Assembly (NCBI RefSeq): GCF_002854065.1
Contig: NZ_CP024149.1
DNA: 33,301 nucleotides
Reading direction: 5' to 3' (one strand)
Origin: Escherichia coli
GTDB lineage: Bacteria; Pseudomonadota; Gammaproteobacteria; Enterobacterales; Enterobacteriaceae
Shown piece after piece: positions 12,001-18,000 of this stretch. The position numbers are program-made. How positions within the stretch are numbered: the first letter of the stretch is position 1; each line of letters starts with the position of its first letter.

Positions 12001-15000
12001 GGTGTCATAAAGTCAGACGTTAGCGGTAAAGGATGGGTTTATGAGATCACTTCCTTATCCGGAGTACAGGCCAGAACGCCGACGTTTTATTACGCTCTGG
12101 CTCATGCGGACAGGATTGTAGTGACAACACATGATGCTGGGCTGTGGTTTCGAATCAGAGATCTGTTGAAGATGGAAGGGGCAACAGCAGTCGTGGAATG
12201 GCGAAACGAGAAAAGTTTTTTACCTGAACAGGTAAAAATAGTTTTCATTAAAGCACAAAATGAGGTGAAAAATGACTGGAAAAAATAGAGTGGTTTTACC
12301 AGCCTTGCTGGCGTTAGGATTAATATCAACAAATGCTAATGCATCTGACCCTTGCGCTTCGGTACTTTGCTTATATGGAAAAGCAGTCGGGCAAGGTGGA
12401 GGGAGTGAATGCAGAAGTGCTGAAAAGGATTTTTTTAATATTCTGAAAAAGAAAAAAGGAAGCATTCGCTGGAGTAAAACTTTTGATGCCCGTAAAGCAT
12501 TTCTGAATCAGTGTTCAACGGCTGATCCTGCTGCTATATCAAAAATCATGAGTAAGTTTGGTCGTGTCAGAGGTTAATTAAAACCTGATAACCGCGCCAA
12601 CGGGTATCAGGGTACTGCAAGTATCACATTTCGCGCCAACGAAATGTGATGATTAGTTACAATCACTGAGGTTAGAAATGAAAGTAACCAAATCTATTAT
12701 AGCTATTTTATTGTGCTTATCTGCTGGTAGTGCATAAGTGGATGTAATAAAAAATGCTCGTGCCTTTTTGAAAGGAACCCTCGATCTGAGCGTTCAGGAA
12801 GCAGATGAAGATATAGAGGAAAGGGAAGAACTTTATAAAAAGAACGGGGCACAACCTGACTATTTAAGTTACCTGGAGGATTAACACATGCAATATGCAT
12901 TGTTTGATGGATTTGAACGAAAGTTTTTGCTGGATGCTCTTGAATTCGGTGTTCTGAAGGACTGGAAAGAAAATCCGGTAAAAGAACTTCCTGATATTGA
13001 TGAATCTGCTCACCCCTTCCATATCTGTTATGGTGGATATTTATTAAACCCTGGTGTTTCAGATTCAGATATTAGCAGAAAAATAAAAGACCAGGCAGGA
13101 TTCTGGCTGGCAGCTATTGATGATACCCGCATGGATTGTCATTCAATAGCTTATTATGATATTCACACACTCCCTCTGATTTCGTGTGGTCATCAAAAGA
13201 TAGTTCCTTTTGCCGCGTTAATAAAAGCTGATGAATGCATCATTTCAAAAATTGCTTCGTATTCTGGTTTTGCTGTAACAGCCTTTTTGAGAATTAAAGA
13301 GTGGGATATTGCAACTAATATACTTAACCGTGAGGGAATTTTTGCCTTTAATGGCTGTGAGCGCAGATTCAGAGTAGTAAGTAAAGATAACTGGCAACAT
13401 ACAGTATCGGAAGAACGCGCTATCCGTTGTGCCAAAAGATTAATTCAATGTAAAGGATAACAAAATGAGACTTTTTATCGCAGAAAAACCCGCAGTAGCA
13501 AATGATATTGTTAAGGCACTTGGTGGCAATTTTACCCGCCATGATGGCTGGTTTGAAAGTGATAACGCCATTGTGACTAACTGTTTTGGTCATATTATCG
13601 AATCACAACCGCCGGAAAACTATAATCCTGAATACAAAGCCTGGAAGGTTGAAACGCTTCCTTTACGTCTTTATCCCGTGAAGTATCAGCCTGTTGAAAG
13701 TGCAGCAAAACAGGTTAAAACGATTCTCGAACTTATCAGACGTGGAGACGTGACTGAAATTGTTCACGCTGGCGATCCTGATGATGAGGGACAGCTACTG
13801 GTTGATGAAGTCCTGGAATATGCAGGCAACACAAAACCCGTAAAGCGCGTTCTGATTAACGACAACACGCTTCCGGCAGTGAAAAAGGCACTGGCAAATC
13901 TTAAAGACAATCGTGATTTCAAAGGACTTTACCTTAAGGCGTTGGCGCGGTCAGTTGCCGATGCCGTCTATGGCTTCTCTATGACACGTGCGTACACCAT
14001 TCCGGCAAAAGCCAGAGGATATCAGGGCGTTCTGTCTGTCGGGCGCGTCCAGACTCCCGTTCTTGGCCTGATTGTGAATCGTACCCGTGCTAACCAGAAC
14101 CATAAATCCAGTTTTTACTACACCATGACCGGAGTCTTTCAGCGTGGTGCTGATGTTATCAGGGCGAACTGGAAGCCAGGGGAATTTGCTCCGCTGACAG
14201 ACCGTAAATTACTTGATAAAGCGTGGGCAGACGGAACGGCTGCATCCCTTGCAGGAAAACCGGCTACAGTTGAAGCAGCAGCAACTGATGATAAAAAAAC
14301 GGCTGCGCCGTTGCCGTTTAATCTGGTCAGACTCCAGCAATACATGAACAAGAAGTTTAAAATGACGGCACAAAAAACGCTGGATATTACGCAACAACTA
14401 CGCGAAAAATATAAAGCAATTACGTATAACCGCTCTGACTGCTCATATCTTTCAGATGAACAATTCAGCGAAGCGCCGCAGGTTATCGATGCCCTGAAAT
14501 CAGTCTTTCCTCAGTCGCTGGATATTGATTCTGCACGTAAAAGCAAAGCGTTTAACAGTGCAAAGGTGACTGCGCATACTGCGATAATCCCGACCGCCAG
14601 TGTGCCTGATGTTAACGCACTCAGCACCGACGAGCGCAATGTTTACCTGGCGATCGCACAACACTATCTTGTTCAGTTCATGCCTGAAAAAGCATACCAG
14701 GAAGTATCGGTTGCCATTCAGTGTGGTGATGAGTCGTTCTATGCCCGTGCCAGAAAAACAACTGACAGCGGATTTGAGGCGTTTCTTGGCGCGGAAACCA
14801 CAGACGAAGGTGAATCAGAAGATAATGATGATTCCGCTTTTGAACTGCTCTGTAAAATTCGCACAGGAGAAACACTGACGACAAAAGAAGTTATTGTTAA
14901 TGAGAAGAAAACAACACCGCCGCCGTTATTCACCGAAGCCTCCTTGCTTGCTGCGCTTGTTCGTGTCGCGGATTTTGTCACTGATCCAACAATTAAAAAA

Positions 15001-18000
15001 TTGTTGAAGGATAAGGATAAAGACAAAAAAGATGAACATGGTGGCATTGGTACGCCAGCTACCCGCGCAGCCATTCTGGAAACGCTGAAGAAAAGAAACT
15101 ATATCACGCTGGAAAAAGGGAAACTTATTCCTACTGATACCGGATATGCGCTTATTGATGCCCTGCCTGGTATAGCGGTTAATCCTGATATGACAGCATT
15201 ATGGTCTGAAAAGCAGGCTGCCATAGAAAATGGCGACCTGACGGTTGAACAGTTTATTAATGATCTGTACGGTGAACTGACAGGCATGATTTCTGATGTT
15301 GACCTGGGCGAGATGAAGATTGAACCCGCTGCGCCAGCAGGGCAGTTTCAACGCCTGGACTCTCCCTGCCCTTCCTGTGGTAAACATATTGTTATCAGGC
15401 CGAAAGGTTATTTCTGTACCGGATGTGAATTTAAAATCTGGAGTGAGTTTTCTGGTAAGAAAATCACCCAGGCACAGGCCGAAAAACTGGTTAAATCAGG
15501 GAAAACCGATTTGATTAAGGGATTTAAAAAGAAAAGTGGTGGAACGTATGATACAGTTCTTGTCCTTGAGGATAAGAAAACAGGGAAGCTGGGTTTTCCG
15601 GCAAGGGCTAAGAAGTGAAAACAAAGCAGGAATGGCTTTTTCAGTTAAGAAAATGTACATCAAGAGATACTCTTGAAAAAGTTATTGAGATTAACCGTTA
15701 CAAACTGCCTTTATCAGAATCAGAGGCATTTTATTCTGCCGCAGATCATCGCCGAGCAGAACTGGTGATGAATAAACTTTATGATAAGGTGCCTTCCGGC
15801 GTCTGGAAGTACGTACACTAAATAAGAGGATTAATTATATGAGCGAACTGACTAAAGAAGATGAATACGGCATTATCAGCCGTACTATGATGAATATTCG
15901 TTCATTGCGTGTTTTTGCCCGTGAGATTGATTTTGAGCAGTTGCTCGAAATGCAGGAAAAGCTCAACGTTGTTATTGAAGAACGTCGTGAAGATGCTGAA
16001 CGTGAAGCGGCTGAACGCCAGGAACTTGAAGCCAAACGTCAGCAGGCCATTGAATACATCATATCTTTAGGTCTTGATCCCGAATCACTCCTTGCTCCTG
16101 TAACAGCAGATACAGTAAAAACCAGGCGGAAAGCCAAAGGCGGAGTAAGAAAGGCTAAATACCGCTTTAAGGATGAAAATGGCGAGATCAGAGAATGGTC
16201 TGGTAATGGCAAGCGTCCGCTTGCTTTACAGAAGCTGCTTGATGAGGGGCATTTCATGGAAGATTTCCTCATTGAGAAAACTAAGCCGGAACAGGCAGAA
16301 TAACCCGCCAGGTATACATCACACAGGGCACTGTTGCAAATAGTCGGTGGTGATAAACTTATCATCCCCTTTTGCTGATGGAGCTGCACATGAACCCATT
16401 CAAAGGCCGGCATTTTCAGCGTGACATCATTCTGTGGGCCGTACGCTGGTACTGCAAATACGGCATCAGTTACCGTGAGCTGCAGGAGATGCTGGCTGAA
16501 CGCGGAGTGAATGTCGATCACTCCACGATTTACCGCTGGGTTCAGCGTTATGCGCCTGAAATGGAAAAACGGCTGCGCTGGTACTGGCGTAACCCTTCCG
16601 ATCTTTGCCCGTGGCACATGGATGAAACCTACGTGAAGGTCAATGGCCGCTGGGCGTATCTGTACCGGGCCGTCGACAGCCGGGGCCGCACTGTCGATTT
16701 TTATCTCTCCTCCCGTCGTAACAGCAAAGCTGCATACCGGTTTCTGGGTAAAATCCTCAACAACGTGAAGAAGTGGCAGATCCCGCGATTCATCAACACG
16801 GATAAAGCGCCCGCCTATGGTCGCGCGCTTGCTCTGCTCAAACGCGAAGGCCGGTGCCCGTCTGACGTTGAACACCGACAGATTAAGTACCGGAACAACG
16901 TGATTGAATGCGATCATGGCAAACTGAAACGGATAATCGGCGCCACGCTGGGATTTAAATCCATGAAGACGGCTTACGCCACCATCAAAGGTATTGAGGT
17001 GATGCGTGCACTACGCAAAGGCCAGGCCTCAGCATTTTATTATGGTGATCCCCTGGGCGAAATGCGCCTGGTAAGCAGAGTTTTTGAAATGTAAGGCCTT
17101 TGAATAAGACAAAAGGCTGCCTCATCGCTAACTTTGCAACAGTGCCTCACACAGACATACACATAGGTATGTCTGTGTGACATACCTATGTACAGTGCCA
17201 GATGGCGTTGCTACGTGAAAAATAACCTACCCTACCCCTGCTTTTTTCGCAGATTTTACGTAGCACACCGTTGCTATAGCATTCATCTAAAAAGCTGAAT
17301 GTCCTTTTCTGTCGCTGTTGCATTTTAATTCACTGAAAAATATTGAGTAATGAAAATGCCGGTAACGCGTCAAGCTGTTGGCCAACGCGACAGGCAGTAT
17401 TGGAAGCAACAAAAAAAATGAAAGAAAAATCCCTCAAATGAAGGAGAAAAAACGGAACTACAGCCGAACGACAGGCACAAAAAAACCCGACTGGTAATCG
17501 GGCTTTTTTGCGTTTTCCAGTCTTGAGTTGGTGGCTCTGACCGGAGAAGGTTACTCTACACCTAACGTTTACATTTTATTCACTATGGTGCTGTAAAGCA
17601 ACTAAATGTGGTTAAGGAACCACATTTAGTGGTGTAACGGGTGTTTTGTGTAGCGTATAATCAGTCAGTTAGTCATGTAGTTGGCTTGCAATCCTGCTGT
17701 TCCCGTATCTGCGGGTATGAACGATTTTAAAGTCCTGGCTGGATAAACAGGTGGTGCTGTATTCGGTGCTCTGGCAGGAGGAGGTCACTCTACACCTAAC
17801 AATGCGAGAGAGCCGTTGTGACAGGCAGTGTATGAGCAAGCAACGGTGATTTCCTCCAGTTTTACTGGAGAAACGGATGATTAATATGTTAATCATCGTT
17901 CTCAGAGCTGTGGTCGCCGTTGCAAACGCGCTGATTGCAGTTCTGGAACTGATCCGCCAATTCATCGATTGATGACAACGGAAACGTAACTAAGGGCAGG

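Follow-up and report, generated by a model that had tools for sequence, protein, structure and literature searches.

The orf190-topB-hha-hns block of an IncX4 mcr-1 plasmid and its probable role in silencing the plasmid's own conjugation genes

The DNA examined here is a 33,301-nucleotide (nt) stretch of Escherichia coli origin (contig NZ_CP024149.1), hereafter called the window, and all coordinates refer to its full length. Just downstream from its genes for conjugative transfer, and all on the + strand, lie four genes: orf190, topB, hha, and hns. We conclude that this block is the 'gem' portion of the IncX plasmid backbone, that its Hha protein and its HppX-type H-NS paralogue probably repress the plasmid's own conjugation genes until the activator PixR intervenes, and that its topoisomerase, TopB, is probably dispensable for transfer. 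IncX4 plasmids rank among the principal carriers of mcr-1, and their success is thought to be due to a low fitness cost combined with tightly switched conjugation. The H-NS/Hha pair is likely the 'off' switch that opposes the 'on' switch PixR, and for this reason it matters both for the ecology of these plasmids and for strategies against conjugation. The block is already known as a named, experimentally studied part of the IncX backbone and, because its genes, their linkage, and their likely role have been published and are routinely annotated, it adds no new kind of system.

The identities of the genes, their conserved architecture, and their orthology to characterized proteins were observed directly. 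The sequence-only reading had described a compact unit of topB, hha, and hns at 13465-16303, and three open reading frames (ORFs) with strong family matches and short gaps indeed lie there. The topB gene (13465-15618) encodes a plasmid type IA topoisomerase of 717 amino acids, whose assignment to the topoisomerase III family comes from full-length domains that score above curated cut-offs. Its Pfam domains are Toprim (PF01751), Topoisom_bac (PF01131; 325.8 bits, 5.6e-97), and Toprim_Crpt (PF13342), and it exceeds the thresholds of both the NCBIfam model 'DNA topoisomerase 3' (NF005829; 626.3 bits versus 597) and the topB model TIGR01056 (535.2 bits versus 515.75). Residues 1-610 align with structures of E. 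coli topoisomerase III (E=2e-116), and the C terminus carries a Cys4 zinc ribbon and a Toprim_Crpt repeat. Enzymes of this family use a catalytic tyrosine, Y328 in the E. coli protein, together with a glutamate and a DxDxE set of acidic residues in the Toprim domain. Y321 of the plasmid enzyme is aligned with Y328, and E7 and D104-x-D106-x-E108 are present in its Toprim domain.

The hha gene (15615-15821) encodes a 68-residue co-repressor of the Hha/YmoA family, whose members are small (~8 kDa) and all-helical. The protein matches the family profiles of Pfam (PF05321 HHA; 100 bits versus a cut-off of 25) and NCBIfam (NF008191; 109 bits versus 90), and it aligns with the YmoA and Hha structures 2k5s, 1jw2, and 4icg (E~1e-23). 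The same protein (WP_000850859.1) is encoded without change by IncX4 plasmids, including pCROD2 of Citrobacter rodentium, and by an IncX1 plasmid. Because the gene differs from the IncX1 copy by six synonymous and no non-synonymous changes, it is under purifying selection. Residues D48 and E25 of E. coli Hha and R12 of H-NS are contact residues between Hha and the H-NS N-terminal domain. Both partners encoded in the window retain the aligned residues, which are D44 and E21 in Hha and R21 in the H-NS paralogue.

The last gene, hns (15839-16303), begins with an ATG preceded by a strong Shine-Dalgarno sequence (AAGAGGA) and encodes a 154-residue paralogue of the HppX type and IncX4 lineage. It has both domains of the H-NS family, namely an N-terminal coiled-coil region for dimerization and oligomerization (PF22470 Histone_HNS_N; 71.4 bits versus 24.5, 5.9e-20), and a C-terminal DNA-binding domain (PF00816 Histone_HNS; 36.2 bits versus 25.6). 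Matches in the PDB are to 3nr7 over residues 16-89 and to 2l93 and 1hnr over residues 103-148. Because its scores against the NCBIfam equivalog models for H-NS (105.9 bits versus 211) and StpA (97.2 bits versus 202) fall far below the cut-offs, the product is a divergent paralogue that is neither H-NS nor StpA, in agreement with what had been noticed earlier from the DNA. The AT-hook-like Q/RGR motif is absent from its loop, which reads WSGNGKRP, compared to WTGQGRTP in H-NS and WSGRGR in the IncX1 and IncX3 proteins. In the IncX4 loop the glycines, the tryptophan, and the proline are kept, Q/R is replaced by N, R is replaced by K, and an arginine comes next. The pattern is that of a variant loop and not of a lost domain.

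The window as a whole is a standard 33-kb IncX4 mcr-1 plasmid, because its topB-hha-hns module is 100% identical to that of pEW655-MCR (33,304 bp; typed IncX4, MOBP, MPF_T). The RefSeq labels in that plasmid are 'type IA DNA topoisomerase', 'hha', and 'H-NS family nucleoid-associated regulatory protein'. Primers published for deletions in the IncX4 plasmid pHNSHP23 also match the window perfectly. A search of the plasmid database PLSDB with the 2.8-kb module returned 1431 plasmids that match some part of it, and 750 of these carry at least 80% of its length. The module-bearing plasmids are, with few exceptions, conjugative plasmids of Escherichia, Salmonella, Klebsiella, or Shigella. Such wide carriage, together with the same order of genes in RefSeq records, indicates that the arrangement is not due to chance.

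The order on the + strand is taxB (ending at 11857), a Cag12-like gene, a TrbM-like gene (ending at 12577), orf190, topB, hha, and hns. Thus, the window combines an IncX replicon with upstream pilX and taxB genes and with topB placed 5' of hns on the same strand, which is the layout of the 'gem' block. The name, for gene expression modulation, was given to the topB-hha-h-ns trio of pOLA52-type IncX1 plasmids (PMC5023117, citing Norman et al. 2008), and hns-topB is counted in the canonical IncX backbone (PMC11880322). In the IncX1 plasmids pOLA52 and pIS15_43, the same three genes occur in the same order and on the same strand. The true first gene of the conserved block, however, is orf190 (12888-13460; 190 codons), whose stop lies 4 nt 5' of topB. 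Its product has no family match in Pfam, NCBIfam, or PHROG. Its counterpart in IncI2 plasmids, orf191, is 94% identical at the amino acid level and likewise ends 4 nt 5' of topB. This extended start, common to IncX4 and IncI2, is a small addition of the present work.

The silencing targets, the co-repression by Hha, and the role of TopB are deduced from relatives of these proteins. In the mechanism we favor, a single co-directional string of genes, orf190-topB-hha-hns, located just 3' of the pilX/taxB/trbM transfer operon, would supply an HppX-type H-NS paralogue that oligomerizes on AT-rich, negatively supercoiled plasmid DNA. Hha, bound to the N-terminal domain of this paralogue, would convert the oligomers to bridged filaments, and these filaments would hold the pilX operon and the region of pixR (32641-32934) repressed until PixR overrides them. 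Because hha is supplied in cis, silencing would be independent of the Hha protein of the host. Such repression would lower the cost of carrying the plasmid, and TopB, itself dispensable for transfer, would manage plasmid topology.

Several studies of related proteins are consistent with this scheme. The H-NS paralogue of pCROD2, termed HppX_CROD2, is a direct orthologue of the window protein (149 of 154 residues identical, 97%). Chromatin immunoprecipitation sequencing (ChIP-seq) revealed that HppX_CROD2 binds its own IncX4 plasmid ~40-fold more specifically than chromosomal H-NS, and that the chromosome is bound very little (PMC13308145). Likewise, the vir conjugation operon of the IncX2 plasmid R6K is repressed by Sfx but cannot be repressed by chromosomal H-NS. 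Sfx binds chromosomal Hha in a 1:1 ratio, requires Hha for full repression and occupancy, has a preference for DNA that is negatively supercoiled, and is found mainly on the plasmid (PMC11796372, PMC13250579). The HppX3 protein and the H-NS paralogue of pHNYX644 repress the type IV secretion system (T4SS) of IncX3 plasmids and are counter-silenced by VirBR/PrfaH (PMC11915502, PMC11880322). In pure culture the pilX operon of an IncX4 plasmid is silent, and its activator is PixR (PMC8725589).

The sequence-only reading had stated that plasmid-borne H-NS/Hha pairs can silence both plasmid genes and horizontally acquired genes, as a stealth function. The first half of this statement is borne out by the IncX2 and IncX3 relatives, which repress the conjugation genes of their own plasmids. 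The second half fits less well with the orthologue, whose ChIP signal prefers its own plasmid. Stealth silencing of host and acquired genes is the model for Sfh and R27, and experiments on IncX plasmids point instead to the plasmid's own genes (PMC13308145, PMC11796372, PMC13250579, PMC11915502, PMC11880322, PMC5023117). In its strict form, the stealth explanation holds that the plasmid pair tops up the host pool, prevents the titration of H-NS, and acts mainly on host or horizontally acquired genes, as does Sfh of pSf-R27. We consider this unlikely, although most of the plasmid is rich in AT, at 32-46% GC, and both H-NS domains are present with the residue aligned to H-NS R12. When HppX_CROD2 is expressed by itself in E. 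coli, it binds chromosomal sites much as H-NS does, and chromosomal H-NS is apparently excluded from pCROD2 at HppX sites, an effect that would spare the host pool as well (PMC13308145). In its native setting, however, this 97%-identical protein binds the chromosome little (PMC13308145). Moreover, with IncX1 hha/h-ns constructs neither the biofilm nor the motility of the host was detectably affected, and its transcriptome changed little (PMC5023117). In laboratory experiments, cells did not pay a measurable fitness cost for the loss of Sfx (PMC11796372).

The general comparison with IncHI plasmids points the same way. R27 and pSf-R27 resemble the window in that they encode both an H-NS paralogue (Sfh) and an Hha protein. 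To our knowledge, these plasmids carry no linked topoisomerase gene, and their two genes are not part of an overlapping string. Sfh is almost the same protein as chromosomal H-NS and acts across the genome, whereas the window protein is far from chromosomal H-NS, lies below the equivalog cut-offs, and is only ~37% identical to the copies on plasmids of IncHI size. The Hha/H-NS pair of R27 does take part in the repression of conjugation (PMC11796372, citing work on R27). Some of the explanations considered here, in addition to the one we prefer, are compatible with it.

A number of observations weigh against the silencing of transfer genes by the window's H-NS and Hha proteins. Our search of the literature found no deletion of hns or hha on an IncX4 mcr-1 plasmid, so that repression of pilX and pixR by the window protein is an extrapolation. 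The DNA-binding half of the IncX4 protein is only ~36-45% identical to that of Sfx/HppX3-type proteins, and the RGR motif that is critical in Sfx (PMC11796372) is missing. The activators also differ, since IncX4 plasmids use the LuxR-type protein PixR while PrfaH and VirBR serve in IncX1/2/3 plasmids. In addition, an IS5-family transposase gene sits inside the T4SS cluster of pCROD2 (31089-32057 of the pCROD2 locus), which means that the ChIP pattern may have come from a transfer-defective plasmid.

The divergence of the DNA-binding half is best appreciated from the mosaic structure of hns. When the window was aligned with the IncX1 plasmid CP020341 at both the DNA and the protein level, a sharp recombination breakpoint was located after codon 60 of hns, at 16011-16025 (~16018). 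On the 5' side, the DNA is ~98% identical to that of the IncX1 plasmid, and on the 3' side similarity collapses. The shared tract begins inside the TrbM-like gene, whose mature part is identical in the two plasmids and whose signal peptide is different. Past codon 60, the IncX1 protein is of the IncX3/Sfx type with an SGRGR loop, whereas the IncX4 protein has a C-terminal half of its own with SGNGKRP. This IncX4-type half is at least 90% identical in ~450 PLSDB records, the next relatives are at most 45% identical, and only about 8 records fall between these values. The mosaic hns gene, with its IncX4-specific half bearing the NGK loop, is a second small addition of this study.

CP020341 otherwise resembles the window closely, with a TopB protein that is 99% identical, an Hha protein that is 100% identical, and the same overlap of topB and hha. 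It differs in that its H-NS is common only over the first 60 residues, in that topB lacks orf190 in front, and in that identity between the TaxB coupling proteins is as low as 40%. From the comparisons with IncX1 and IncI2 plasmids, the conserved core is really orf190-topB-hha. The head of H-NS that binds Hha moves together with this core, and the half for oligomerization and DNA binding remains with the backbone type. We infer that the C-terminal half of the IncX4 protein may be matched to the transfer region that it silences. Such matching fits the finding that repression of R6K by Sfx is determined by the linker and DNA-binding domain (PMC11796372), and it fits the distance of the IncX4 transfer region from those of IncX1/2/3 plasmids (PMC11880322).

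A further statement of the sequence-only reading, that type IA topoisomerases assist conjugative DNA processing, is not supported for TopB. A transposon screen of the near-identical plasmid pHNSHP23 identified 18 transfer-essential genes, which are the 10 pilX genes, taxA/B/C, tsxA, cds4, cds9, cds10, and cds16 (PMC8725589). Neither cds4 nor cds16 is orf190 or another gene of the block, as their primers map to 19318-19665 and ~27333, respectively. The entire block, orf190, topB, hha, and hns, is thus outside the transfer-essential set, and this explicit placement is also a small addition of the present work. It follows that we regard as very unlikely an explanation in which TopB is a conjugation accessory that processes the transferred DNA in the donor or recipient, with hha and hns as co-transcribed passengers. 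Other conjugative systems do include homologues of topoisomerase III, such as TraE of RP4, and the same TopB lineage is found on conjugative IncI2 plasmids. The block in the window also lies directly 3' of taxB and the Cag12-like and TrbM-like genes, on the same strand, so its adjacency to the transfer region, as first noticed, is real. In pCROD2, however, the block and trbM are ~4.5 kb apart, with cargo between them, so that adjacency is a property of the compact mcr-1 backbone and not of the block. Furthermore, Tn5 insertions in topB of pHNSHP23 were not counter-selected over two rounds of mating, and the pilX operon ends with trbM (PMC8725589), which is followed in the window by two stem-loops.

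TopB, which transfer does not require, would most likely act on the topology of the plasmid, through either decatenation or local relaxation. It keeps the segment aligned to E. coli residues 502-519, which we take to be the decatenation loop, beside an 8-residue insertion rich in Lys and Asp. This segment, and a topoisomerase III-type organization along the whole length of the protein, would suit a maintenance enzyme that decatenates or resolves the intermediates of pir/iteron replication independently of hha and hns, whose proximity would then reflect shared history only. Compatible with such a role, IncX TopB has been described as a protein without a known function, and its over-expression left quinolone minimal inhibitory concentrations and mutation rates unchanged (PMC4207749). 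Nevertheless, Tn5 insertions in pHNSHP23 were spread evenly except in pir, tsxB, and mcr-1 (PMC8725589), which means that the plasmid can be maintained in the laboratory without topB, and topB is truncated in some IncX plasmids (PMC4207749). On balance, a maintenance role independent of hha and hns is unlikely.

A different proposal makes the three genes a writer-reader system, in which TopB would write a plasmid-specific topology that is read by the Hha/HppX filament, giving 'cognate plasmid specificity'. In IncX2, IncX3, and IncX4 plasmids the H-NS gene is located beside the topoisomerase gene or one gene away from it, and the idea has been put forward on these grounds, although as pure speculation (PMC13308145). 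Silencing by Sfx is evidently dependent on supercoiling, because novobiocin abolishes it (PMC13250579), and the tract exchanged between IncX1 and IncX4 plasmids combines topB and hha with the portion of hns that encodes the Hha-binding head. These points are offset by others. IncI2 plasmids have orf191-topB-hha without any H-NS gene, the IncX3 and IncX4 TopB proteins are only 41% identical, and a diffusible enzyme has no obvious means of acting only on its own plasmid. We judge the proposal improbable. A further reading, quite doubtful in our view, treats the block as a self-contained silencing cassette that is portable. The GTGA overlap described below would fix the ratio of TopB to Hha, TopB would set the local plasmid topology, and Hha/HppX would read it through an unusual NGK half that remains with the IncX4 transfer region and is tuned to it, with topB, hha, and the Hha-binding head of H-NS swapped among IncX backbones by recombination.

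Comparison with other topB neighborhoods clarifies which features of the block are general. R6K (topBx-sfx) and IncX3 plasmids (topB-hppX3) share with the window a topoisomerase III gene and a gene for an H-NS paralogue downstream of T4SS genes, and in them the second gene follows the first directly. They also share an H-NS paralogue that represses conjugation and cooperates with Hha (PMC11796372, PMC13250579, PMC11915502, PMC11880322). They differ in having no plasmid-borne hha (for R6K, according to PMC11796372), a TopB protein of 775 amino acids that is 41% identical, a full-length H-NS protein that is ~47% identical and carries the RGR motif, and PrfaH/VirBR as the activator in place of PixR. 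The IncI2 arrangement, orf191-topB-hha (e.g., p5CRE51-MCR-1), has the same TopB lineage with ~85% DNA identity and hha after topB, but there is no hns gene and hha is only 69% identical and begins 68 nt past topB. The closest arrangement is that of pCROD2, where the HppX_CROD2 locus comprises the full four-gene block orf191-topB-hha-hns and an identical Hha protein. It differs in the final five codons of hns and in the DNA beyond them, where IS26 stands in the window and a stem-loop in pCROD2.

Spacing within the block of the window is tight: orf190 stops 4 nt short of topB, topB and hha overlap by 4 nt, and hns begins after a gap of 17 nt from hha. Gene order and spacing are the same in pEW655-MCR, in pCROD2, and in an IncX1 plasmid. 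The sequence-only reading had reported an Hha-family gene with a GTG start that overlaps the topB stop, and the junction (15603-15618) confirms this precisely. The GTG (15615-15617) shares its last two bases, TG, with the TGA stop (15616-15618), forming GTGA at 15615-15618, and a Shine-Dalgarno-like AAGGG (15603-15607) lies 7 nt 5' of the GTG. This GTG is the sole in-frame start that gives full-length Hha, and the GTGA overlap is kept in IncX4 plasmids, including pCROD2, and in IncX1 (CP020341). Most records share the GTG start of the window, but at least one IncX4 mcr-1 plasmid has ATG instead: in pLHM10-1-mcr-1 (33,301 bp), the G at 15615 is replaced by A, and the affected topB codon changes synonymously from AAG to AAA. 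Such GTG/ATG variation, silent in topB, supports the codon at 15615 as the real start of hha, and the polymorphism is a further small addition of this work. Six PLSDB records give a 100% protein match, as expected from an ATG start.

The conserved overlap and the AAGGG motif make coupled expression of topB and hha plausible on sequence grounds. Against coupling, a 101-nt segment around the junction showed no RNA structure that would occlude the hha start (z=-0.27), the topB-hha spacer of IncI2 plasmids is 68 nt, and the sfx promoter of R6K lies within the 3' end of topBx (PMC13250579). A promoter-like site in the 3' end of the window's topB (TTTAAA-18-TATGAT, 15523-15552, + strand), 63 nt 5' of the hha start and not above background, is a possible internal promoter for hha-hns.

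The limits of the transcription unit can be placed only by inference, because a promoter scan of 11800-16450 found 10 promoter-like sites versus 8.6+/-2.7 in shuffled sequences, which is not above background, and a terminator scan of the same interval found no terminator-like site on the + strand. The transfer operon of an IncX4 mcr-1 plasmid spans cds9 to trbM according to Cappable-seq and reverse transcription PCR (PMC8725589). Directly 3' of the TrbM-like gene in the window are two perfect or near-perfect inverted repeats on the + strand (12584-12611 and 12623-12650), neither followed by a run of T residues. These stem-loops probably mark the end of the pilX operon, presumably as terminators, and with it the upstream limit of the block's own transcription unit. 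A weak candidate promoter for orf190-topB-hha-hns (TAGAAA-16-TATTAT, 12673-12700, + strand) emerged from the same scan.

The spacer of 310 nt between the TrbM-like gene and orf190 (12578-12887) holds a 48-codon ORF with a GTG start (12738-12884) and is unrelated to the DNA 5' of orf191 in pCROD2 and IncI2 plasmids. RefSeq locus tags skip one number in this spacer, as would be expected if a pseudogene had been annotated there.

On its downstream side the block is bounded by IS26 (16327-17146, + strand), which starts 23 nt past the hns stop and was recognized by a transposase family match and by the terminal inverted repeats GGCACTGTTGCAAA at 16327 and 17146. Both the final five codons of hns and its 3' flank are unlike those of pCROD2, where a GC-rich stem-loop is located, and hns is accordingly left with no obvious terminator ahead of IS26. 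A 292-codon ORF on the - strand (16039-16917), reaching from IS26 into the 3' half of hns, is probably an artifact of the IS26 antisense frame. The many short antisense ORFs within topB were likewise not taken as genes, as the gene on the opposite strand is well supported.

An Rfam scan of the whole window yielded no match within the block. Its sole match is an AgrB antisense RNA at 17477-17565 on the - strand (58.7 bits versus a gathering score of 40). In pEW655-MCR, a DinQ-like type I toxin gene, dqlB, is annotated downstream of IS26, and it probably forms a type I toxin-antitoxin pair with the AgrB antisense RNA.

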